A stretch of 12,018 nt of DNA. Origin: an uncultured Pseudomonadota bacterium (lineage in GTDB: Bacteria > BMS3Abin14). This document shows positions 1 through 12,018 of the stretch, in pieces. A model generated the notes under the pieces. It was given only the letters and a program-made list of their open reading frames with translations. It made no database searches and was not told the origin of the DNA. Location of the stretch: assembly GCA_964454175.1 (NCBI GenBank), contig CAYVSA010000057.1, forward strand, positions 1 through 12,018, given 5' to 3'. The stretch's first letter is position 1. Every line of letters starts with the position of its first letter. The position numbers and the translations under genes are program-made.

Positions 1-15
1 CGAAGAGGTGACCTA

Positions 16-960
16 ATGAAAAAAGTCGGCTCCTTATTACGATCGCTTACACTATTTGTCGCAGCACTTGTGTTCCTCGTGCAAGGCAGCCTGACCATGG
101 CGTCAGCGAGCCAGGTCAGCAGCGGTAAGATAGTCGCTGTTGGCGGGGTGGAGCATGATTGGGGTTTCATTGACATAAAGGGCGGCAACCTTAAGCACAG
201 GTTCACACTTCTGAATACCGGGAAGCAGGACCTGATTCTCAAAGGCGGTTTCACATCGTGCGGATGCACCAAAGTCAAGTTCACCCTGGCTGACGGTTCG
301 GTTTCCCCGGAATTCGGTATGTCTCTGATGTCGGATTGGGTCGGAGTTGTCAGGCCGGGTGAAAGCTTTGACGCAACAGCAACATTTGATCCGCTTGCCC
401 ACGGTCCGGACGCCCTTGGTCCTGTTGTGAGGAAGGTTTATGTTGTCAGCAGCGCTCCTCCAGACGGCCGCATAACAACGATAATGCCTATCGTCAGGGA
501 CGGCAGTGTCACGACCATGCAGCTATCCGGAAATATTGTTTCTCCTGAGGAGTTCAGGAGCAGCGCCGGACCGAAAAACTACGAGTATGCCCTGGGGAAT
601 TTCAAATTCCGCGAGACGGAACACGACCTTGGCCGCCTGAAGCAGAGTCAGGGGATCGTCAAGTTCGAGTTCCCGTTCGTCTATGATGGAAAAGAAGCAG
701 CAACTGTCACCGGAACACCAACAAGCTGCGGGTGTACTACTGCCTCAGTGTCGGTGAAAACACTGAAACCGGGCCAGGAGGGCGTACTCATGGTTGAGTT
801 CGACCCGAATTTTCACGAAGAACCTGCTGGAAAGTTCTTCAGGACCATATCAATTCTCACAGATCCTCCCCAAAAAGAGCGGGCTGAAGTACGTGTCTGG
901 GCTGAGATCGATAAGGACCTGGGGCACGAAGCGTATAAACATAAAGAACATGACGATTAA
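16..960 (+). CDS. Exported protein with two DUF1573-like (Ig-like) domains
   Basis: 314 aa. GAGGTG RBS upstream. Signal peptide (MKK, hydrophobic core, ASA site). Two repeats of the DUF1573 pattern (D-x-G-x-I/L ... F ... TSCGCT ... PG ... FDP). His/acidic C-terminal tail. Confidence 0.8.
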   Translation: MKKVGSLLRSLTLFVAALVFLVQGSLTMASASQVSSGKIVAVGGVEHDWGFIDIKGGNLKHRFTLLNTGKQDLILKGGFTSCGCTKVKFTLADGSVSPEFGMSLMSDWVGVVRPGESFDATATFDPLAHGPDALGPVVRKVYVVSSAPPDGRITTIMPIVRDGSVTTMQLSGNIVSPEEFRSSAGPKNYEYALGNFKFRETEHDLGRLKQSQGIVKFEFPFVYDGKEAATVTGTPTSCGCTTASVSVKTLKPGQEGVLMVEFDPNFHEEPAGKFFRTISILTDPPQKERAEVRVWAEIDKDLGHEAYKHKEHDD

Positions 961-1145
961 TTAACGGATCCATGTCCCAGGACCCAAGACCCATGTTGGT
1001 TAAATCAGAGTTTGAAAAATTGGCGATTGGCCCTTCGACTAAATCAGGGGCGATGCTCACGGCAGGCAATGGGTTAGAGGCCGTAGGCAAGGGGAAGAGG
1101 CAGACGTATCGGGGTAGAACATTGGAGCGTTGGGCATAGGAGCAG

Positions 1146-1457
1146 CTACTTATCGATCTCGAACCTGATATCAGTCACGACACCTTCTCCTACCTCACGA
1201 GCAAGCCTGGCCAGGAGTTCGCTTTTCATCATAGTGAGCTCCTGCATCCAGGTCGGGCTCTCCACGGTAATGACGAGGACAGAGTCCCGGAACCTGGAAG
1301 CCTGGGAGTATTGTGCGGCATCGCCGGCAATTACTTCCCACGCGAGCATTGCTCTGCCCCTGTCTGATGTTTCTTCCGGGAGCCCAAGGCTCTCCAGAAG
1401 ATTTTTTATAACACTCCCAATAGGCGTGAGCGGCTGTTTTTTTCGTCTTGAGTTCAC
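1146..1457 (-). CDS. DUF721 / DciA-family protein
   Basis: 103 aa, GTG start with AGGA RBS. Motifs 'PIGSVI', 'AWEVIAG', 'LVITVESPTWMQELTMMKSELLARL' and 'VTDIRF' are typical of DUF721. Confidence 0.85.
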   Translation of the reverse strand: MNSRRKKQPLTPIGSVIKNLLESLGLPEETSDRGRAMLAWEVIAGDAAQYSQASRFRDSVLVITVESPTWMQELTMMKSELLARLAREVGEGVVTDIRFEIDK

Positions 1458-1496
1458 TATCAGTCCTTGTAATTACCTAAAAATAGTCGTATTTTC

Positions 1497-1525
1497 TTGA
1501 CACTTCCGGGCAACAATACTAATAG
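1497..1525 (+). promoter_or_regulatory. Putative sigma70 promoter for the gntR pair
   Basis: Perfect TTGACA at 1497-1502. The -10 candidate TAATAG at 17-bp spacing (1520-1525) is imperfect. Confidence 0.45.
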
Positions 1526-1526
1526 A

Positions 1527-1554
1527 TATTGTGTATTGTATATTGTATACAATG
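1527..1554. promoter_or_regulatory. Putative GntR (FadR-subfamily) operator
   Basis: Perfect 12-bp palindrome ATTGTATACAAT (1542-1553) within phased TATTGT repeats. It fits the GT-Nx-AC GntR motif and lies between the promoter and the first gntR start. Confidence 0.65.
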
Positions 1555-1594
1555 TAACAATACCATCTCACCTCCGACTGGAAGACAATACGAC

Positions 1595-2281
1595 ATGAAG
1601 CTCAGAAAACACAAGACCCTAAGAGAGCAGATAGTCTTTTCCCTCCGCGAATCAATTATCAGAGGCGATTTAAAACCGGGGCAGAAGCTCACAGAGCCGG
1701 AACTGGCAAACCGCCTCGGCATCAGCAGGACCCCTATAAGGGAATCCTTCCGCCAACTGGAGAGCGAGGGGTTTCTAACGGTTGTTCCCCGTAAGGGGGC
1801 GGTAGTATCGAGTATCACCAGAAAGGATATAGAAGATTTCTATGAACTTAAAAGCCTGCTGGAAGGATATGCTGCGAGAATAGCTGCAGAGAGGATATCA
1901 ACAAAAGACGTGGAAAACCTGGTTAAACTCAATCAAAAGCTTAATGAGTTTGCGGATAAGGAACAGCTGGAAAAATTTTTTTCGAAGAACGAGGAATTTC
2001 ACAATTACTATTTAAACCTCTGCGGCAACGAAAAGCTGGTGGAGATCAGGGATTCGATGGTAAAAAGGTTCCTGGGCTTCAGGATGGCGGCCCTGTCGCT
2101 GCCCGGCAGGCTTGAAGAATCGGTCAAGCAGCACGAGCAGATCATTAAGGCATTCAAGAGGAAAGATGGCCGGCTGGCTGAGGCTGTTGTGGTTGAGCAC
2201 GCCCTTCTCGGGGGAGACTACCTTGCCGAGCAGGTGGACAGAAGCTCCAGGGAACAGACAGATCCTGAGAGGAAGAGATGA
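1595..2281 (+). CDS. GntR-family transcriptional regulator (wHTH + FCD domain), copy 1
   Basis: wHTH 'LKPGQKLTEPELANRLGISRTPIRESFRQLESEG...PRKGAVV'; FCD motifs NEEFH, QHEQI and EH. ATG 1595 (228 aa) is preferred over the track start at 1529, which lies in the operator. Confidence 0.92.
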   Translation: MKLRKHKTLREQIVFSLRESIIRGDLKPGQKLTEPELANRLGISRTPIRESFRQLESEGFLTVVPRKGAVVSSITRKDIEDFYELKSLLEGYAARIAAERISTKDVENLVKLNQKLNEFADKEQLEKFFSKNEEFHNYYLNLCGNEKLVEIRDSMVKRFLGFRMAALSLPGRLEESVKQHEQIIKAFKRKDGRLAEAVVVEHALLGGDYLAEQVDRSSREQTDPERKR

Positions 2282-2955
2282 AAGATTTCAAGATCAAGAT
2301 CGAAGAGCCCAAACTGCTTTCAGAAGACATTGCAGACTCTATCAAAACCGCTATCATCAAGGGCAAATTCAAGCCTGGGGAGCGCATATCCGAGGGAGAT
2401 CTGGCCGACACGATGGGTATATCAAGGACGCCGCTCCGTGAAGCCTTCAGGAAACTGGAAAACGAGGGCTTCATTACGATAATTCCCCGCAAGGGTGCTA
2501 TTGTGACAGAGATCGACCCGGAAGAAGCCAGAGATCTTTACATCATTAAGGGAACCCTTGAAGGCCTGGCCGCAAGGCTGGCAGCCCCGGTAATAAAAGA
2601 GAGGGATATCGAGAAGCTGGAAAAGATAAACGATGAGTTAAAGGGCCTGATGGATGGTAACGATCTGGAGAGCTTCTACAGGCTGCATCGGCGGTTTCAC
2701 ATGGTTTTTGTGAAGGCTTCCGGCAACACAAGGCTCATCCAGATGATCTCTAACCTCAACGATCATTTCAAGCGGATAGGCATTGTTTCCCTTACCCTCC
2801 CGGGACAGTTCGAGCAGACCATCCACCAGCACGAACAGATCATAAAGGCCTTCAAAAAAGGAAATGAAAAGGCAGCCGAGGAGAAGGTCAGAGAGAACGT
2901 CCAGACCGGTGGACAGGTTCTGCTGGATCATCTGTCGGAATCTGGTGATGAGTGA
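2278..2955 (+). CDS. GntR-family transcriptional regulator (wHTH + FCD domain), copy 2
   Basis: 225 aa. 'FKPGERISEGDLADTMGISRTPLREAFRKLENEG...PRKGAIV'; FCD motifs HRRFH and QHEQI. ATGA overlap with the upstream gene. Confidence 0.92.
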   Translation: MKDFKIKIEEPKLLSEDIADSIKTAIIKGKFKPGERISEGDLADTMGISRTPLREAFRKLENEGFITIIPRKGAIVTEIDPEEARDLYIIKGTLEGLAARLAAPVIKERDIEKLEKINDELKGLMDGNDLESFYRLHRRFHMVFVKASGNTRLIQMISNLNDHFKRIGIVSLTLPGQFEQTIHQHEQIIKAFKKGNEKAAEEKVRENVQTGGQVLLDHLSESGDE

Positions 2956-2967
2956 TGGTGATGATGA

Positions 2968-3207
2968 TCTGGTTTCTGGTTTCCAGTTTCTGGTATTCAA
3001 TCGACAGGGAGCCCGAACCTGGTAATCAGTAGTCGAAATGTTTATTATGGACAGGGTTCTTCTTCCATTTCCCACTCTCCATTTTCCAATTTTCATTACT
3101 CTGTTTACTAATGCTCTTATTTCTAATATCTAATTGTCTTGGAATAAATTTTCAATTTCCAATGTGCTTTTTAACTAACCCGGGATCTGGGTCCCGGGGT
3201 TTGGGAA
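2968..3207. repeat. Degenerate heptameric tandem repeat clusters
   Basis: tctggtt/tctggtt/tccagtt/tctggta (2968-2995); ttccatt/tcccact/ctccatt/ttccaat/tttcatt (3063-3097); ttctaat/atctaat (3121-3134); tttcaat/ttccaat (3150-3163); ccgggat/ctgggtc/ccggggt/ttgggaa (3180-3207). Confidence 0.6.
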
Positions 3208-3226
3208 TCTTTACAACCTGACAACC

Positions 3227-6049
3227 ATGAAGCGAAGAACATTTCTCAAGATAGGCGGAGCTGCACTGGCGGGTCTTCTGCCGCGAACGGGCAGGGCAGG
3301 TGCCAGGCCAGCCCAGGTCTCCCGTCCAACGGTCGTTTACGGTGAAGAAGTAGCCAGCCGATGCCCTCTCTGCTCCATGGGCTGCGGGACGATCTCGTTT
3401 CTGGACCCCTCGGGTCTTCTGAAAATAGAGGGGGACCCCGACTGCCCCATCGCCATGGGCAGTCTTTGCGCCAGGGGCGCTGCTTTTGTCAAGGTCAACG
3501 GGATATGGGAAAAACAAAAACCGTTGTACCGGCGTCCGGGCGCACTCGACTGGGAGGAGATCAGCCTGGATAGTGCCCTGGGCAGGGTCGCACGGCGCAT
3601 TAAGGATATGCGAGATGTAAGGATGAGGACGGCCAAAGGTAAGGGCAGCGAACGAAACCGCTTCGATTCCATGGCCCTTATCGCGGGGGGTAACCTTACC
3701 AATGAACAGGCCTACACAGCGGTCAAGCTCTTCCGTTCTCTGGGAGTAGTTCACATGGACACAACGGTCCGATCCTGCAGGGGGATGGCGGCTGCAGGCC
3801 TCATGGACACTCTGGGCCTTCCGGGCCCGACCCATTCAACTGACCAGGTCGCCAAAGCTGACGTAGTAGTCCTTTTGGGAACCAATCCCGGCCTCACATC
3901 ACCGGCCCTGGCGAGGTCATTGGAGGATGTGCGAAAACGAAGTGGAACAGTTATTATTCTCGACCCTCGAAGGACTGAAACAGCGCGGCCAGATGACATC
4001 TGGCTGAATGTTCGCCCCGGAAGTGACGCTGCCGTTCTTGGGGCCATGATATCCTGGGTGATGGAAAAGGGTAAGGTTCGCGTGGATGAACTCACCGGAT
4101 ACACGGACGCAAACTTCATGACAGTTACCGAGTTCGAAGGTGAATACGAGCGCTTCACATCAGGGAAGAAAAAAGGCGGACTCATTCGTGACAACACCCT
4201 CACTGAACCCTATTCAGTATATCAGCGTCTGAGGGCTCACTACTCGAGATATTCCCTCGAAAATGCATCGGCCATAGCCGGTATCGACAAGGCACTCCTG
4301 AGGAGGGCATGCCGACTGCTGGCCAGGACTGGAGAGCAGGAGTTTTCCGCCTGTTTCGTTCTTGGGTCGGGAGCAGTATCTGGTACCTCAGGGGCTGAGC
4401 TGACAAGGCAGGTGGCGATACTCCAGGCCCTCCTGGGTAATCTCAAGAAACGCGGCGGTGGAATAGTGATGGCTGCGGGAGCAGGCAACGCACAGGGAGT
4501 CTGCGATATGGGGCTGCTCTCGCCTTATCTCCCAGGTTATCTGCCCCTTCCCATTGTGGGCAGGGATCCACTGAAAAGCGCGGGGAGCAAAAGTGAAGGA
4601 CAAGCGATCCAGGCCCTTGCAAGGACATGGTTTGCAAGAGACGGTGGGGCTGAAGCGGCCTCCCTGCTGCCAGGAAGGTACAAGGGCGAAGACCTTACGG
4701 TTAACGGGATCATCCGCAATATAGCATCAGAGAAAATAAAGGCCCTGGTTGTCATCGGGGCCGAACCCTTTAACAGCCTGCCTGGCCGGAAGCGCCTTCT
4801 GGAGGCCATGGAAAAACTTGATCTCCTCGTAGTCATGGATATAGACCCTGGAAGCACCTGCAACTTCTGGAAGTCTGCAAAAAGGGGTTCACCCTCTGTT
4901 AAAACGGAGATTATGTTTATTCCTGTAGAGCCCCCAGCCCTACGCTTGGGAAGTGTTACCGATGGGTCCCGGCGAGTTCGCTCCCTGGCCTCAGCTCTGA
5001 AAATCCCGGAAGATGGGGCCTCACTCCTGGCAGTGCTGTCCGCACTGGGGCATGGGATTCAGACTATTTACAGACAGGAAAAGGGGTTTGCCGCAGGTCC
5101 TGTAGAGGCAATGATCTGGCCCTATAATATCACCGTGAAAAAAACCGCAGATGAGATAAACGGCGTCGTGGATCCATCTGAATCTACGCCTCGATTCCTG
5201 TCGCCTGGAAATAGCTGGCCCAGGGAGGCCCGCTGCGGAAACAGGCTTTACAGGGGCTGGATGACAGAGGAAGAATGGCTTCCCGAGCGCAGAGATAACT
5301 CCGATCCTTTTGGAAGGGGCTTTTTCGGCAGGTGGGGCTGGTTCTGGCCATGGGGGGTGCCTGATCCGTTCTCTCATGTCTATTTTGACAAGACAGACAG
5401 GTCTGTGCTCCTCCGCTGGGACGAACAGGGCAGCACAAGACTTAAGGCCAGGGATGTTTTGCCGCTCAGGCCCGGTTTACCCATCCTTTTCTGGAAGAAA
5501 GTGAGTAAAGGAACGGTTTTCCCTGAGCATTACGAGCCTTTTCACAGCCCCGTTCCTGATTTCTTCACGGGGGGAACATCTGATCCTTTCGTCAGGCTCA
5601 GGGATGGCGGCCTTAAAGAGTGGGACTATCTTTTCAGGAGACCGGAAAGGGTCCTAAGTAAATTTCCAGTGATCCTGACGTTTCGCCGTACCGGCAACAT
5701 CATGGGAAGCGGGGGCGTTCTTTCCAGGGTGGACTGGCTGGCCGAATTGGGTACGGTCAGGATCATGGAGATCAGTCCGGAATTTGCCGATGAACTGGGC
5801 GTCAAGGATGGGGCAAAGGTCAGCGTTACTTCTCCTGATGACAAGGCCGCCCTCACTGCGAGAGTTGCGGTGACCTCGAGGATAAGGGATTTTTCCTATG
5901 CTGGCGTGCGGCATCCTGTCGCATCCATGACTCTATTCGGTGGTGGGGACCTGTCTGCCAACACACTGATGACGGCTATCCAGAACACTTCCAACGGGGG
6001 CTTCGAAATGAAAGCATTCCTGGTGAGGGTTGAAAAGAAGGGAACGTGA
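3227..6049 (+). CDS. Divergent FdhA-like molybdopterin oxidoreductase (DMSO reductase family), Tat-exported, non-canonical active site
   Basis: 940 aa intact ORF. Tat motif KRRTFLK. [4Fe-4S] motif CPLCSMGC...LCARG. Collinear with the downstream FdhA (PLYRRPG, LDPR, FPEHYEP, EMKAFLV). Active site reads RSCR instead of RIUH. Confidence 0.85.
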   Translation: MKRRTFLKIGGAALAGLLPRTGRAGARPAQVSRPTVVYGEEVASRCPLCSMGCGTISFLDPSGLLKIEGDPDCPIAMGSLCARGAAFVKVNGIWEKQKPLYRRPGALDWEEISLDSALGRVARRIKDMRDVRMRTAKGKGSERNRFDSMALIAGGNLTNEQAYTAVKLFRSLGVVHMDTTVRSCRGMAAAGLMDTLGLPGPTHSTDQVAKADVVVLLGTNPGLTSPALARSLEDVRKRSGTVIILDPRRTETARPDDIWLNVRPGSDAAVLGAMISWVMEKGKVRVDELTGYTDANFMTVTEFEGEYERFTSGKKKGGLIRDNTLTEPYSVYQRLRAHYSRYSLENASAIAGIDKALLRRACRLLARTGEQEFSACFVLGSGAVSGTSGAELTRQVAILQALLGNLKKRGGGIVMAAGAGNAQGVCDMGLLSPYLPGYLPLPIVGRDPLKSAGSKSEGQAIQALARTWFARDGGAEAASLLPGRYKGEDLTVNGIIRNIASEKIKALVVIGAEPFNSLPGRKRLLEAMEKLDLLVVMDIDPGSTCNFWKSAKRGSPSVKTEIMFIPVEPPALRLGSVTDGSRRVRSLASALKIPEDGASLLAVLSALGHGIQTIYRQEKGFAAGPVEAMIWPYNITVKKTADEINGVVDPSESTPRFLSPGNSWPREARCGNRLYRGWMTEEEWLPERRDNSDPFGRGFFGRWGWFWPWGVPDPFSHVYFDKTDRSVLLRWDEQGSTRLKARDVLPLRPGLPILFWKKVSKGTVFPEHYEPFHSPVPDFFTGGTSDPFVRLRDGGLKEWDYLFRRPERVLSKFPVILTFRRTGNIMGSGGVLSRVDWLAELGTVRIMEISPEFADELGVKDGAKVSVTSPDDKAALTARVAVTSRIRDFSYAGVRHPVASMTLFGGGDLSANTLMTAIQNTSNGGFEMKAFLVRVEKKGT

Positions 6050-6081
6050 GCCTGGCAAGGTCAGGTTCGGGATGCGTCGGT

Positions 6082-6110
6082 TAGACATTGCGTGTCAGAT
6101 TGGATATAAG
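6082..6110 (+). promoter_or_regulatory. Possible sigma70 promoter for fdhE
   Basis: TAGACA-N17-TATAAG in the 111-bp gap before fdhE. Confidence 0.3.
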
Positions 6111-6160
6111 GATTGAATACCAAATTCCATCTACCTGAAGGCTGAACCAACGGGAGAGAC

Positions 6161-7048
6161 ATGAATAACTTTGAAAGCCGTGAAAAAACGTTCAGAGATG
6201 CTCTGTATTCCGGGGTAATGGATATTGAGGAGATGGAGGATGTCCTTGCACTCTACAGGGACCTTTATCCCGTAATATCAAAAAAGCTGGCAACGGCAGG
6301 AAAACAGAGGGAGCTGAGCTCCGAAGAGGCCAAAGTACGGCTCGGTGAGGGATTCACTCTCCTTGACCCCAAGGATCTGCTGCCAACCGAAAAGGGCATG
6401 GTCAAAAGGGCTGTGGCAGTGGCTGACGTTCTGGGAAAGCACTCTCAGGAAAATACGCCGTGGTCGGACGGCAGCCTTGACAGGCTTCTGGAGCCGGCAG
6501 TTTTGGCCAAACTGGTTTCCGAGTATCTGTCAGGAGGCGAAGAGACCCTGAAAAAGGAGCTGGCCAGAGTTTCTGTTGAGAAGGATCTTGGAGTATTCCT
6601 GGTCTTTAACGTTACGAAAGGAGTATTCCTTACAGCGGCAAGATCGCTCGGGGACGCCGACACCGAAAGCTGGGAGGGCGGCAGCTGCCCGGTTTGCGGA
6701 GGAGGACCCGCTGTGGCTTCGCTGGAGGAGGAGGGTGGCAAACGGTATCTCGTCTGCCACAGGTGCCATTGGAAATGGAGATATCCCAGGGTCCGCTGTC
6801 CCTTCTGCGACAGCACCGACCATGAGCACCTTGGCTACTTTACTGTTGAAGAAGAGCGGGAAAATGTGAGAGTGGATTTTTGCAGAAAATGCAGCGGATA
6901 TATCAAGACCTGGGACATGAGGGATGGCTCGGAAATTGTTCCGGAAGCCCAGGACCTTCTGACTGTGCGCTACGACCTTGCAGGAGAGGGAGAGGGTTTC
7001 ACCCGAAAGGCACCAAATCTTTTCGGGGTACGAGTGGGAACCGATTAA
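6161..7048 (+). CDS. fdhE: Formate dehydrogenase accessory protein FdhE
   Basis: 295 aa, GGGAG RBS. Four CxxC motifs in the FdhE arrangement: CPVCG, 'RYLVCHRC', 'RVRCPFC' and 'CRKCSGYIKT'. Adjacent to the fdh operon. Confidence 0.9.
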   Translation: MNNFESREKTFRDALYSGVMDIEEMEDVLALYRDLYPVISKKLATAGKQRELSSEEAKVRLGEGFTLLDPKDLLPTEKGMVKRAVAVADVLGKHSQENTPWSDGSLDRLLEPAVLAKLVSEYLSGGEETLKKELARVSVEKDLGVFLVFNVTKGVFLTAARSLGDADTESWEGGSCPVCGGGPAVASLEEEGGKRYLVCHRCHWKWRYPRVRCPFCDSTDHEHLGYFTVEEERENVRVDFCRKCSGYIKTWDMRDGSEIVPEAQDLLTVRYDLAGEGEGFTRKAPNLFGVRVGTD

Positions 7049-7193
7049 GAGTCAGGGTCTTTATGTGGTTTTTTACTCTGGTTACATGTTTTTAATTTAA
7101 AATTCCTTGAAATAAAATAGCGTTTGATGTAAATGTGATTATTGGGTTATTGACCGGGTAAAGTTCAGCTGTAGCTGCGGGAACCCACGGGGG

Positions 7194-7222
7194 TTGCTAC
7201 TGAGGTTTTAAACCAATACATT
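7194..7222 (+). promoter_or_regulatory. Putative sigma70 promoter of the fdh leader/operon
   Basis: TTGCTA (7194-7199)-N17-TACATT (7217-7222). The predicted start near 7229 lies upstream of the structured RNA. Confidence 0.4.
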
Positions 7223-7260
7223 ATTAGATAGCACGGTATTACCGTGCTTGACAGTCTAGT

Positions 7261-7353
7261 CGACTTCCGATCCCGTTTCGTCCCTCCGGGATGTTCGGGA
7301 CGATAGGGTTTGGCGAGCAATTGCCGAGCCTGCCTATCTTGCAAAGGAAGCCG
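7261..7353 (+). ncRNA. Moco/Wco (Tuco)-like riboswitch aptamer candidate lacking P3
   Basis: P1 CUUCC(GA) 7264-7270 pairs with (AAA)GGAAG 7343-7350. P2 is 7271-7300. AGGG leads into a 10-bp P4 (7307-7316/7321-7330) capped by a GCAA (GNRA) loop. The 3' segment GCCU-GCCUAUCUUGC-AAAGGA parallels the Moco motif GCCU-CCCGUAUUUGG-AAAGGA as recalled. Located directly upstream of a Mo/W enzyme. Confidence 0.65.
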
Positions 7354-7383
7354 TGACTTGCTCATGGCTTCCTTTATTTATTT
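7343..7383 (+). terminator. Intrinsic terminator in the fdh leader (attenuator)
   Basis: 14-bp stem AAAGGAAGCCGTGA / TCATGGCTTCCTTT (one G-U pair), 5-nt loop, running into TTTATTTATTT about 100 nt before the fdhA start. Confidence 0.75.
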
Positions 7384-7478
7384 GAGATCATGACCTTTTG
7401 AGGAAGGGAGGTTCAGGGGGCTGATCGGGGCGGCTTTCGGGCCGTAAATTTAATGTCTTAACCGTTACAGGAGAAAGG

Positions 7479-10400
7479 ATGGTGAAGGCTAGGATGAACG
7501 TAACCAGGAGAGATTTCTTAAAGATCTCTGGTGCCACAGTCTCAGGTGCGGCGCTGGGTGGTCTGGGTCTCAAGGGTACGGCCGCTGCTGCCGGAAGGTC
7601 AGGCAACGTTGCGGTAAAGTACTCCAGGGAGACCAATTCCATCTGTCCGTTCTGCGCCGTGGGATGCGGCATGGTCGTTCACTCCCACAACAACAAGGTG
7701 GTCAATATGGAGGGTGATCCGGACCATCCCATTAACATGGGTACCCTCTGTTCAAAGGCCCAGGCTCTCAGGCAGGTCTCTGAGAACCCGTGGCGGATCA
7801 CCAGTCCCCTTTACCGCGCGCCGAGAAGCAGCGAGTGGAAAGAGGTCAGTTGGGATTGGGCGTACAACGAGATCGCCAAAAGGATAAAGAAGAGCCGCGA
7901 TGCGGGCTTCACGAAAGTGAACTCCAGCGGTCAGGTAGTTAACCGAAACGACGGGATCGCATCCGTCGGTTCCGCCGCTCTGGATAATGAAGAGTGCTAC
8001 ATCCTCCAGAAGTGGCTTCGCGCCCTCGGCCTGGTGTATATCGAGCACCAGGCGCGCATATGACACAGCGCAACTGTAGCGGCTCTGGCAGAGTCGTTTG
8101 GGCGCGGCGCAATGACAAACCACTGGGTAGACATCCGTAATTCGGATGTGATCCTGGTGTCGGGCAGCAACGCTGCCGAGAATCATCCCATATCATTCAA
8201 GTGGGTGAAAAAGGCCATGGATAACGGGGCCAGGCTGCTTTCCGTGGACCCGAGGTTCACGAGGACTTCCTCCAAGGCTGATGTGTATGCACCTATGAGG
8301 TCCGGAACGGATATCGCCTTCCTCGGCGGTATGATCAAGTACATCCTGGACAACGAGCTGTATCACAAGGATTACGTGAGGCTCTACACAAACGGGCCAT
8401 TTATCCTCAACAGCAGTTTCAAGATGCCGGGAGACCTCGATGGTGTGTTTTCCGGATACGATCCCAAGAAGCGCAGCTACAACAAGAAGGCGTGGGCTTT
8501 TTCTGCGGACAGCAAAGGTGTAGTCAGAAAAGACCCGGACATGAAGGACCCCATGTGCGTCCTTCAGCTTCTCAGAAAGCACTTTTCAAGATATACGCTG
8601 GACAAGGTGTCGGCTATCACTGGTACGCCAAAGGACAAGCTGCTTGCTGTCTACAAGGAGTATGCGTCCACAGGCAAGGCCAACCGTACCGGTACGATCA
8701 TGTATGCCATGGGCTGGACCCAGCACACCGTGGGAACCCAGAATATTCGAACGATGGCAATGATCCAGCTGCTGCTGGGCAACATCGGGATGTCCGGAGG
8801 AGGGGTCAATGCCCTCAGGGGAGAGTCCAATGTTCAGGGCTCCACCGACCACTGCCTCCTGTTCCACATCCTGCCCGGCTATCTGAAGACTCCCAGGGCT
8901 TCCAACAGCACCTTCGCCAAATACAACGAGAAGTGGACACCAAAGACGAAAGAGCCGTATTCAGCAAACTGGTGGGGCAACTATCCCAAGTACAGCGCCA
9001 GCCTGATCCGGGCTCACTTCGGCACTGGTGCCGCCCTGTCAACTCAGTACCAGTGGCTGCCCAAGCTGGATGACGGTCAGAACGCTTCCTGGCTCATGCT
9101 GTTTGACGAGATGAGCAAGGGCAAGTTCACCGGATTCTTTGCATGGGGCCAGAACCCTGCCTGCTCCGGTTCCAACGCGGGAAAGGTTCGAAACGCCCTG
9201 GGAAAGCTGGACTGGATGGTCAACGTCAACCTGTTCGACAACGAGACGGGCTCCTTCTGGCGCGGACCTGGAGTAAATCCCTCGGAGATCAAGACCGAGG
9301 TGTTTTTACTTCCATGCGCCATGTCCTTCGAAAAGGAAGGCAGCATTACGAACAGCGGACGATGGGGTCAGTGGCGCTGGGCCGCAGTCAACGGACCCGC
9401 ACCGTCGGATTCGGAAATAATCAACGATCTCCAGTTCAGGGTCAGGAAGCTCTATGAGGAGCAGGGCGGCGTTTACCCCGACCCGATCCTCAACCTGGCG
9501 TGGGACTACGGTGCCAAGGGCCCAGACGGCAAAGTCAAGCGAGTGGATACGCACCTGATAGCCAAGGAGGTCAACGGATATTTCCTGGCCGACAAGGTTG
9601 TGAAAGGCAAACAGTTCAAGAAGGGCGACCTTGTGCCGTCCTTTGCCTTCCTTCAGGACGACGGATCCACATCCTCGGGTAACTGGCTGTATTGCCAGTC
9701 TTACAATGGCGATGGGAATAACATGGCCCGCAGGAGCACTTCCGATCCTTCCGGCATCGGCCTCTTTCCCAAGTGGTCATGGTGCTGGCCCGTCAACAGG
9801 AGGATCATCTACAATCGTGCCAGCGTGGACGAGTACGGTAAGCCCTGGGCTCCTCACAAGCCTGTCGTTTACTGGAACGGGAAGAAGTGGATCGGCGATG
9901 TTCCCGATGGCGGATGGCCTCCGCTTCGCAAGGCTGACGGCACGTGGAACGAGAAGACCAAGCTGGCCTACATCATGAAGCCTCACGGAGTCGGTCACCT
10001 CTTTGGCCCCGGCAGGGCGGAAGGTCCGTTCCCGGAGCACTACGAGCCTCTCGAGTGCCCCATCCAGACAAATCTCATGAACAAGCAGAGGATCAACCCG
10101 GTGGCCAAGATCTTCACGGGCAAAGAGGATGTGTTCCTCACCTGCGATGACCGGTATCCAATAGTGGCCACCACGTACCGCGTCACTGAACACTGGCAGA
10201 CCGGAGTTCTTACGCGATGGCTGCCCTGGCAGGCCGAGATGCAGCCGGCAAACTTCTGCGAGATCAGCAGAGAGCTTGCAAAAGAAAAGGGCATCAAGAA
10301 CGGGGATAAGGTAGTCGTTTCCTCGGCCAGAAACAAAGTCGATGCCATCGCGGTCGTCACAATGCGGTTCAAACCCTTCAAGATCGCGGGCAACACGGTG

Positions 10401-10586
10401 CATCAGGTCGGACTTCCGTGGTGCTTCGGTTGGGCAACAACCGAAAACGGGGTGAAGGCAAACAACATACCTTACAGCAATCCGACATTCGGTGATTCGT
10501 CGAACCTGCTGACTCCGTCGGTCGGTGACGCAAACACAATGATTCCAGAGACGAAGGCCTTTATGGTCAACGTCGTGAAAGCCTAG
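7479..10586 (+). CDS. fdnG: Selenocysteine-containing formate dehydrogenase alpha subunit (FdnG/FdhA type), 1035 aa, Sec195
   Basis: Track ORFs 7479-8063 and 8112-10586 are in frame and joined by TGA at 8061-8063: EHQARI-U-HSATVAALAESFGRGAMTNHW. Tat motif TRRDFLK; CPFCAVGC...LCSK; ALRGESNVQG; TTYRVTEHWQTG; PETKAF. AGGAG RBS; alternative start ATG 7494. Confidence 0.96.
8064..8098 (+). promoter_or_regulatory. Bacterial SECIS element
   Basis: Hairpin AGCGGCUCU-GGC-AGAGUCGUU (8078-8098) with a G-containing apical loop about 23 nt after the in-frame UGA. Confidence 0.8.
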
Positions 10587-10602
10587 AAAGGGGGTGATTT
10601 GA

Positions 10603-11436
10603 GTGGCTGATAAAATGATCGTTGTTGATACTTCAAGGTGTACTGCCTGCCGCGGCTGCCAGACAGCCTGCAAGCAGTGGAATAACCTATCAGCGGTTCG
10701 GACATCGAACCGCGGCGGCTACGAGAACCCCCCTGACCTCGGGTACAATACGTACCTGAAGATCCGCTTTAATGAGATCGAGTCAGGCGGAGAGGTCAAG
10801 TGGCTGTTCGGTCAGGCGAGGTGTATGCACTGCTCTGACGCAGGATGCATGAAAGCGTGTCCGGTTCCCGGCGCCATCACCCGCGACTCAAACGGGGCTG
10901 TGGTTATTAATCAGAACCTGTGCACAGGCTGCAAGTACTGTGTGTTCGGGTGCCCCTTCGAGATACCCAGGTATGATATGGGGAATGCGGAAGGCTACGG
11001 CAAGGACAAGGCCTTCAAGTGCACCATGTGTGCAGACAGGCAGGGACTGGGAATGTCTCCGGCCTGCACCAAGACCTGTCCCACGGGCGCCCTGTCTTTC
11101 ACCGACAGGTCAAAGCTGCCCGGTATTGCAGCTGGCGCCAAGAAGGCGGGAATGACCGTCTACGACGGCGGTGCTCTTCAGACCAATGTTGTCTTTCTCC
11201 TCGAGGATAAGGCTTCTGCTTATGGTCTGCCCGCCAAACCGTCCATTCCGACACCAACCTACCTGTGGCGCACAGTCATGAAGCCGGTTGGCGTGGCGGC
11301 ATTCGTCCTCGGGATCCTGGCAGCGATAACGCACCTGGTGACCGTTGGCCCCAAGGAAGTGGACGAAGGTGATGACGCCCCCGGCTCATCGCCATATCAG
11401 GGAGGAGGTGGCAGCGATGTCTCATCATCTAATTAA
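10603..11436 (+). CDS. fdnH: Formate dehydrogenase beta (iron-sulfur) subunit with C-terminal membrane anchor
   Basis: 277 aa, GTG start, GGGGGTG RBS. Four Cys clusters (CTACRGCQTAC, CMHCSDAGCMKAC, CTGCKYCVFGC, CTMC...PACTKTC). TM helix 'PVGVAAFVLGILAAITHLVTVGP'. Confidence 0.93.
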   Translation: MADKMIVVDTSRCTACRGCQTACKQWNNLSAVRTSNRGGYENPPDLGYNTYLKIRFNEIESGGEVKWLFGQARCMHCSDAGCMKACPVPGAITRDSNGAVVINQNLCTGCKYCVFGCPFEIPRYDMGNAEGYGKDKAFKCTMCADRQGLGMSPACTKTCPTGALSFTDRSKLPGIAAGAKKAGMTVYDGGALQTNVVFLLEDKASAYGLPAKPSIPTPTYLWRTVMKPVGVAAFVLGILAAITHLVTVGPKEVDEGDDAPGSSPYQGGGGSDVSSSN

Positions 11437-12018
11437 GCGCTTCACCTCCAGTGAGAGGTGTGTGCACTGGATAAACATGCTGGCTTTCATAGTCCTGGCC
11501 CTTACGGGTCTTGGTCTTTACAGCCATTCGTTCTTCGGTCTGACCTCCATCTTCGGCGGTGTGGACATGTCCAGGACCATCCACCATTTTACTGGCCTGG
11601 TGTTCATTGTCACTACACTGCTTATTTTCTTCCAGTGGTTGAAGGACTACTCGGCTGCTGCCGACGACTCCCTTGGAACTGTGATAAGCAGTTACATGGA
11701 TCACGACTTCAAGGGCCCTGCATCCGGCAAGCTTAACGCCGGCCAGAAGCTTCTTGGCTACACTGTGTTTTTATTCGGTGTTGTCATGGCGCTCACCGGT
11801 CTTGCGATGTGGTATCCGACAGTCCTTGGCCGAGGTATGCAGCAGTGGATGTATTTCCTGCACAACTTCGTGTTCACCCTGTTTATGCTGCTTATGGTGC
11901 TCCACGTCTACCTTGGTACAGCCGGCAACCCCGGAACATGGCGAGCCATGTCGAAGGGGACGGTTACCAAGGCTTGGGCGAAGAAGCATCATGGGGCGTG
12001 GGATGGTGAAGAAGCGTA
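11417..12018 (+). CDS. fdnI: Formate dehydrogenase gamma subunit (cytochrome b); stop codon probably cut by the window edge
   Basis: Not in the ORF track. GGAGGAGG RBS, ATG 11417: MSHHLIKRFTSSERCVHWINMLAFIVLALTG...RTIHHFTG...GKLNAGQK...FLHNF...VLHVYL...AMSKGTVTKAWAKKHHGAW. Four hydrophobic segments with heme His ligands. 200 codons, then 'TA' at the window end. Overlaps fdnH by 20 nt. Confidence 0.93.
   Translation, partial: MSHHLIKRFTSSERCVHWINMLAFIVLALTGLGLYSHSFFGLTSIFGGVDMSRTIHHFTGLVFIVTTLLIFFQWLKDYSAAADDSLGTVISSYMDHDFKGPASGKLNAGQKLLGYTVFLFGVVMALTGLAMWYPTVLGRGMQQWMYFLHNFVFTLFMLLMVLHVYLGTAGNPGTWRAMSKGTVTKAWAKKHHGAWDGEEA

Follow-up and report, generated by a model that had tools for sequence, protein, structure and literature searches.

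A P3-less Moco-family RNA with a flipped P5 pair and a predicted ON-type terminator in front of a formate dehydrogenase operon

The Moco RNAs were described by Regulski et al. (2008; PMC2408646), who reported that 58 of 176 RNAs lacked P3 and linked these to tungsten metabolism, and who noted that "all four" RNAs with a GCAA loop had no receptor. In the supplementary alignment of that study, four GCAA rows (Mth-1-1, Tth-1-1, Tth-2-1, and Dre-1-1) all read GC at P5, and Mth-1-1, located before an AOR operon of M. thermoacetica, and Dre-1-1 had, as judged by eye, a terminator that starts within P1. In the available part of its main text, neither the P5 flip, nor a helical receptor, nor ON logic is mentioned. 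The only RNA tested there was that of E. coli moaA, which possesses P3, a GAAA loop and a ribosome binding site (RBS) within P1, and is an OFF switch. This Mo-responsive OFF switch was also the only one tested in the accessible parts of the literature, and the tungsten-cofactor (Wco) riboswitch was proposed from gene context. The loss of P3 and the GCAA loop without receptor were thus already described, and the P5 flip was in print, apparently unremarked. Neither an ON-type nor a P5-defined Moco class was found in the open-access literature as far as it was available, including PMC9971707, PMC5473149, PMC9481103, PMC3766115, PMC5651825, PMC9495176, and bioRxiv 2024.10.15.618519.

The stretch of DNA analyzed here (the window) comprised positions 1 to 12,018 of the forward strand of contig CAYVSA010000057.1, from the assembly GCA_964454175.1 of an uncultured Pseudomonadota bacterium. 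Family membership, secondary structure, the mutual exclusion of P1 and a terminator, conservation and gene association were computed. A subclass, new here, was marked by the flip together with a loop other than GAAA and a helical receptor of C-G pairs. On balance, we favor a transcriptional ON riboswitch that belongs to a distinct subclass of the Moco family and responds to a tungsten-pterin cofactor.

The aptamer and the flipped P5 subclass

A match to RF01055 (Moco/Wco riboswitch) was found at 7253-7365 on the plus strand (Rfam; 40.0 bits against the cut-off of 36, E = 9e-07). The Moco-family aptamer spanned 7264-7350 (+). Its parts on this strand, assigned from the sequence and the Rfam alignment, were the 5-bp P1 (7264-7268/7346-7350), P2a (7271-7275/7296-7300), P2b (7279-7284/7288-7293), the 11-bp P4 (7306-7316/7321-7331) closed by the GNRA tetraloop GCAA (L4, 7317-7320), and P5 (7332-7333/7341-7342). 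P3 was missing because P2 and P4 were joined only by the 5-nt linker CGAUA (J2/4, 7301-7305). The pairs of P5 were G7332-C7342 and C7333-G7341, followed by AAA and the P1 3' strand; the Rfam consensus reads CC...GG, and the outer pair was thus flipped from C-G to G-C. The 11-nt receptor CCUAAG/UAUGG was absent from P2. The missing P3, the flipped pair and the GCAA loop without canonical receptor had all been named in the original prediction and were borne out; the other core nucleotides agreed with the RF01055 consensus.

The aptamer fold had a z of -3.6. The leader preceded the same formate dehydrogenase (FDH) in 14 of 16 genomes of the taxonomic family to which the window belongs, and the two genomes without it were 77-78% complete. 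Two-sided changes occurred at three P2 pairs and six P4 pairs among these 14 orthologues, and P1 was invariant. All 14 read GC/GC at P5, with GCAA in 11 and GUAA in three. A wider set of 56 variant RNAs, pre-filtered for P1 and P4 pairing, showed covariation at two pairs of P1, five of P2a and eight of P4. The RF01055 cut-off was passed by 13/14 orthologues, and a covariance model trained on variants (R1), whose training set includes the window RNA, gave the latter 80.9 bits. P5 was not formed in the single-sequence minimum-energy fold of the window RNA, where 7302-7307 paired with 7333-7338 instead (-38.6 vs. -36.2 kcal/mol). This pairing was rejected as the conserved fold and taken as a local competitor, because L5 varied among the orthologues. 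The P5 helix is supported by the family-wide comparison rather than by energy.

The majority feature of RF01055, GAAA with the 11-nt receptor, was replaced in the window RNA by GCAA with tandem C-G pairs; since the GCAA exception without receptor has been published (PMC2408646), membership in the family stands. The gene context agreed as well, with a formate dehydrogenase alpha gene after all 14 family leaders (identified in the window by a TIGR profile and in the relatives by matching N-termini). It is virtually certain that the element is a genuine RF01055 member.

Scanning genomes for the flipped P5 gave at least 121 loci (122 matches, 100 kept by a filter for P1 and P4 pairing and 22 removed), and the flipped RNAs among the matches listed spanned Bacillota, Chloroflexota, Thermus, Caldiserica, Desulfobacteraceae/Syntrophaceae, and spirochaetes. 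A metagenome scan, in which each side of P5 could be C or G, also gave at least 121 loci; its 123 raw matches listed comprised 113 CC/GG, eight GC/GC and two mixed RNAs. After the pairing filter, 103 CC/GG, eight GC/GC and no mixed RNAs remained among the 111 listed, indicating that both sides flip jointly. The RNAs counted in both scans include related sequences. GAAA was found in 103/103 canonical and 0/8 flipped RNAs of the metagenome matches listed, and it was retained by 24/100 flipped RNAs of the larger genome-scan set listed. The idea that the absence of P3 defines the subclass was rejected: among the matches listed, P3 was absent in 91/103 canonical RNAs and present in 11/100 flipped RNAs (four of them before AOR), as counted with a rigid pattern (30-60-nt gap plus fixed spacing) that is biased against long P3 forms.

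A base-specific rule pairs the third base of a GNRA loop with the pair in its helical receptor. In the window, such a receptor was predicted in distal P2 (7282-7290, +), formed by the tandem pairs C7282-G7290 and C7283-G7289 in register with the canonical receptor. The receptor C-G pair was invariant in 56/56 variants. Canonical RNAs among the matches listed put the C of their receptor at P2 position 10 or 11 (74 and 14 of 103), and 68 of the 70 foldable short non-GAAA variants (of 73 listed) had a C-G pair at one of these positions. The pair next to it tracked the third base of L4. Among the matches listed, tandem C-G accompanied 50/52 GNAA loops, while C-G followed by A-U accompanied 13/18 GNGA loops vs. 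1/52 GNAA loops; the GNGA cases were mostly visibly related clostridial sequences and thus represent few independent events. The pattern agreed with the GYRA/helix rules in their general statement (PMC3300017). Docking of the GCAA loop had been predicted on the C-G runs of P2, and this held in part: the distal tandem was in register, and the proximal UCCCG/CGGGA run was rejected as out of register. The register suggests that the GCAA loop docks on the distal tandem C-G pairs.

Standard models were expected to score the variant poorly. This was true in part of the subclass but not of the window copy, which passed. RF01055 recovered 25 of 40 non-GAAA variants, with nine below the cut-off and six undetected (two batches of 20 drawn from the 76 among the matches listed, for the most part in the order of the list), and within the family it gave variant copies 33.9-48.1 bits vs. 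49.8-76.7 bits for canonical copies. The Rfam cut-off therefore overlooks part of the flipped subclass (15/40 tested variants). The linkage of GC/GC at P5 to loops other than GAAA and to a helical receptor upheld the distinct, divergent subclass that had been proposed, and there is little doubt that the window RNA belongs to it.

The terminator overlapping P1 and the downstream operon

The earlier sequence-only reading overlooked the expression platform, a P1-overlapping terminator, which is the most informative feature of the leader. This intrinsic terminator (7343-7383, +) had a 14-bp stem (7343-7356/7362-7375) and a U-rich tail to 7383 (-21.4 kcal/mol, z -5.6), and it was found in 14/14 orthologues. 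Its 5' arm contained J5/1 and the entire P1 3' strand. Terminator and P1 are therefore mutually exclusive, which predicts a ligand-ON switch; in the fold of the full leader, the terminator was formed and P1 was not. The likely RBS (~7469-7478) lay ~120 nt 3' of P1 and outside it. The window leader had neither of the OFF-type arrangements, an RBS within P1 or a terminator beyond P1 that is compatible with it.

An overlap was counted when at least three of the first five nucleotides of the P1 3' strand lay in a hairpin with an energy of at most -10 kcal/mol that was followed by a U-rich tail. All 14 family fdnG leaders had one vs. 1/12 canonical family copies (borderline, -11.3), and 10/12 canonical copies had a terminator 3' of P1. 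Among the matches listed, the overlap occurred in 60/99 flipped RNAs with enough flank vs. 2/101 canonical RNAs, or in 52/88 vs. 2/94 when counted by 70%-identity clusters; block-shuffled controls gave 84/1070. The metagenome sample allowing both P5 types had it in 6/8 flipped vs. 2/101 canonical RNAs among the matches listed. By gene class, the flipped RNAs listed showed it in 48/64 enzyme-type, 5/27 transport or biosynthesis and 7/8 unassigned cases. A simple equation of flip with ON was rejected, since 39/99 flipped RNAs among the matches listed, and 18/21 of those before transporters, had no overlapping terminator. As read from its base pairing, the window leader is very likely ON-wired.

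In the family alignment of the terminator, 98.8% of the cells were paired, with one-sided changes only and no two-sided covariation. Its support comes from elsewhere, where stems of unrelated sequence showed the P1 overlap again in several phyla. The terminator state was favored over the P1 state by 8-15 kcal/mol in 14/14 orthologues, so the switch could operate only kinetically. In aptamer-only transcripts, the P1 probability was at least 0.6 in 10/14 orthologues; both results would be expected of a kinetic ON switch. We propose that P2, P4, and P5 would fold during transcription, the GCAA loop would dock on the distal tandem C-G of P2, and the junction would be closed by the short 5-bp P1. 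If a tungsten-pterin cofactor were bound in time, P1 would be held and the terminator denied its 5' arm, giving read-through into the FDH operon; with no ligand, the downstream strand would nucleate beside P1, invade it and complete the 14-bp terminator. Apo-FDH would thus be made only when the cofactor is present, and the canonical copy before moaA would shut cofactor synthesis.

Another explanation is that the terminator is not controlled by a ligand, the leader being a constitutive attenuator, a site of read-through by a protein factor, or subject to translational OFF control as for E. limosum wor1. The large energy gap toward termination would fit this, as would the OFF model of the E. limosum authors together with the flat mRNA (PMC11725836). 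However, the aptamer core and the receptor register were conserved with covariation, the overlap with P1 recurred on unrelated stems in several phyla, and the likely RBS was outside P1. We regard this explanation as very improbable, and the ligand-dependent ON switch is kept in what follows.

The first gene after the leader (7479-10586, +; start at 7479 or 7494) encoded a formate dehydrogenase alpha with a Tat signal and selenocysteine, whose C-terminal part matched TIGR01553 (1102.5 bits, cut-off 814.2). It contained an in-frame UGA at 8061-8063 and, at this codon, a SECIS-like element (8058-8116, +; RF01989 30.5 bits, E 0.0016, below the cut-off of 63). When read with TGA as U, its best PDB matches were the Sec-FDH alpha subunits 6sdr/9qm0 (~1300 bits) and 1h0h (1285), which we take to be tungsten enzymes; the E. 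coli enzyme 1kqf scored 915. A formate dehydrogenase beta (Fe-S) gene followed in the same operon (10603-11436, +; TIGR01582 224 bits, below the cut-off of 334.7).

A sigma-70 promoter scan of 7000-7520 found none; a weak candidate seen by eye (-35 at 7194-7199, -10 at 7217-7222, 8/12) was below the scan threshold. A perfect 9-bp inverted repeat, a candidate 5' hairpin or operator, was located just 3' of it at 7230-7248. Its core was the only perfect copy among four near-matches in the genome and no near-match lay on the tup/AOR contig, so it was rejected as a regulon operator. By eye, a similar palindrome followed TATAAT in the leader of one relative (G015).

Three further regions of the window were recorded. 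A 314-aa protein (16-960, +) had two stretches like the OS_HP2 (seleno)protein model, below the cut-off, and a repeated SCGCT motif. Two tandem GntR-family regulators (1529-2955, +) were found upstream of the FDH cluster, where protein-level control of the operon is possible. A second, diverged FDH-alpha-like Tat protein of 940 aa (3227-6049, +; TIGR01553 385 bits, below the cut-off) had no in-frame UGA and was located upstream of fdhE (6161-7048).

Tungsten context and the question of the ligand

The genome, which was 98.5% complete, contained tupABC-like genes beside an AOR gene on contig C45. TupA (236 bits) and TupB (196 bits) were the best among tungstate/molybdate-specific models, below the cut-offs of 400 and 320, and modA had no match in the genome. 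The suggested comparison of tupABC with modABC thus came out for tupABC, and the Tup-like transporter, the AOR and the lack of a modA match fit a host that uses tungsten. Among 13 relatives, 12 had a TupA homologue (weak in one, partial in another), and modA passed the cut-off in none. A regulator with a helix-turn-helix-like and a molybdopterin/PBP domain (L276 2255-3172, - strand, contig C45), presumably TunR/TaoR-like, was located immediately before tupABC and in the vicinity of the AOR.

The other Moco RNA of the genome was canonical and P3-less, scored 63.5 bits with RF01055 and preceded moaA. Its terminator lay 20 nt beyond P1 and was compatible with the aptamer, and an alternative fold paired the 5' arm of this terminator with the aptamer 5' end. 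RF01055 and R1 found only these two copies in the genome (a third R1 match, E 0.87, was disregarded), and thus none before its AOR. The genome appears to pair OFF logic for cofactor supply (moaA) with ON logic for its use (FDH). Family-wide, canonical copies occurred in 12 genomes, variant copies in 14, and both in 11, where both were P3-less and on different gene classes.

Genes behind the RNAs were labeled by Pfam on 46/95 and on 68 first ORFs (long-flank loci), extended by local BLAST. Flipped RNAs among the matches listed mostly preceded aldehyde oxidoreductase-type operons: AOR was downstream of 47/100 and 6/8 flipped vs. 2/103 canonical RNAs, with 29 of these 103 left without a gene assignment. 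The predicted link to tungstoenzyme-type genes was therefore supported within the matches listed. Flipped RNAs listed were also found before tupA, wtpA, moaA, and moaC, without a P1-overlapping terminator. The non-Tup transporters tested behind flipped RNAs included two WtpA matches over the cut-off, and three flipped Thermus RNAs with P3 preceded ModA-like genes (two tested, both over the cut-off).

Several single loci were also observed. A flipped ON-type RNA of L046 (1201-1279, -) before a ferredoxin-AOR operon was missed by Rfam and stood back-to-back with a canonical-scoring RNA of 67.5 bits (1459-1584, +). Flipped, ON-type RNAs with GAAA in Chloroflexota (L045, L048, L049) preceded a rhodanese-domain lipoprotein-like gene and a 4Fe-4S protein. 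ON-type variants in L041 and L051 preceded a radical SAM protein with an HMPTM-type zinc ribbon, a possible cofactor maturase. Flipped RNAs in L072 and L085 preceded chromate-transporter (ChrA) genes, possible tungstate or molybdate transporters, followed by moaA.

Expression data pointed both ways. In S. ovata under 10x tungstate, aor1-2 rose 30-fold, aor4 14-fold and fdhA2 3.3-fold, and aor3, mop1, and fdhA1 did not respond (PMC4973070). Among 31 Sporomusa-genus matches inspected, 25 were flipped (10 by eye), 24/25 of these ON-type and 15 before AOR; the 31 were top-scoring for the variant-trained model and included three identical copies, so they give no fair ratio. The induction is tied to variant leaders at the genus level only, and GAF-domain regulators could be another cause. 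ON-type copies of this genus also preceded such regulators. Tandem variants (L287/L309, L291, L293, L303), each with its own P1-overlapping terminator, stood before AOR; in the upstream copy, P2 was shorter and the loop read GGAA or GGGA. The wor1 mRNA of E. limosum did not change significantly when W was limiting (-1.01 to -1.17-fold; PMC11725836). The other RF01055-controlled genes of that strain changed at most about 2-fold (PMC11725836), so the test had little range. Table S4 of this study, as extracted, has focA counts falling under W limitation, and its text says that they rise.

The ligand is probably a tungsten-pterin cofactor, a role proposed for P3-less RNAs from gene context (PMC2408646), and a preference for W over Mo would fit the gene associations described above. 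Here, two other explanations were considered. The first is a metal-blind ON switch that reads Moco, Wco, and metal-free molybdopterin alike, the flip and the GYRA loop being lineage markers that spread with AOR operons and were later co-opted for fdnG. The unresponsive E. limosum wor1 (PMC11725836), the flipped Thermus RNAs with P3 before ModA and the GAAA loops of 24/100 flipped RNAs listed would be expected from it; moreover, a two-sided helix swap can be neutral, and swaps of GAAA/11-nt for GYRA/helix are frequent in other RNAs (PMC3300017). However, the flip was nearly missing, among the matches listed, from the abundant class controlling transport and biosynthesis, the non-Tup transporters tested included two WtpA over the cut-off, tungstate induced genes in S. 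ovata (PMC4973070), and the canonical E. coli RNA discriminates Mo from W (PMC2408646). A metal-blind switch thus seems rather unlikely.

The second explanation is that flipped and canonical P3-less RNAs bind different mature ligands, such as a bis-pterin vs. a mono-pterin W cofactor, and that the cell reads precursor and finished cofactor separately. The mature cofactor of AOR is bis-MPT and that of FDH is bis-MGD. These enzymes share the variant despite this difference, the remaining core nucleotides agreed with the consensus, and flipped RNAs listed also preceded tupA, moaA, and moaC, all of which speak against different ligands. The 11 genomes with both copy types, both P3-less and on different gene classes, would be accounted for, as would the position of P5 against the conserved junction, the presumed ligand site (PMC2408646), and the behavior of wor1, which differs from that of focA/fetABC1 in E. 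limosum (PMC11725836). We consider this explanation improbable.

A wider reading is offered tentatively. RF01055 may hide a third class, defined by the P5 flip and the GNRA/helix contact instead of P3, which would sense the finished W cofactor and turn tungstoenzyme operons (AOR/WOR, W-FDH, activators) ON, often in tandem and in several phyla; synthesis and uptake would be turned OFF by the canonical copies of the same cell. This is possible but doubtful; if true, the flipped pair would act as a determinant of specificity, and the rule that assigns Mo vs. W by P3 would have to be revised. The window leader would offer a mechanism by which tungstate induces aor and fdh in acetogens, a point of relevance to gas fermentation. 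The predicted gain of signal, the short terminator and the presence of matched ON and OFF copies in one genome make the discrimination of W from Mo by the RNA directly testable.

Comparison with known systems

The window RNA shares P1, P2, P4, P5, the junction consensus, a GNRA loop on P4, and cofactor-related downstream genes with the RF01055 Moco RNAs. The E. coli moaA riboswitch has P3 and GAAA and is OFF (PMC2408646), whereas the window leader is P3-less, has GCAA and is predicted to be ON. Also close are the WOR1 'Tuco' leaders of E. limosum and M. thermoacetica (PMC11725836 SI Fig. S10), which are likewise P3-less, with GCAA, no 11-nt receptor, and GC at P5. These leaders precede a tungsten oxidoreductase operon (PMC11725836), whereas that of the window precedes a Sec-FDH. 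Their authors describe the E. limosum leader as translational OFF and label that of M. thermoacetica only as 'transcriptional' (PMC11725836). In contrast to these WOR1 leaders, the window terminator is short, strong, and fully overlapping P1. By eye, the E. limosum wor1 leader has a hairpin overlapping P1 and then a U-rich run, absent from the legend text (PMC11725836 SI Fig. S10B-i).

A loop-receptor swap within a family is also found in c-di-GMP-I riboswitches, about 35% of which have GYRA/helix (PMC3300017). Their aptamer is different, and in the Moco family the swap accompanies the P5 flip and the ON wiring. The pbuE adenine and ZTP riboswitches are kinetic transcription ON switches whose terminator strand-invades P1, as shown experimentally. 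Their aptamers are unrelated to that of the window, for which we infer the mechanism; they resemble it in a short P1 that lends its 3' strand to a far more stable terminator.
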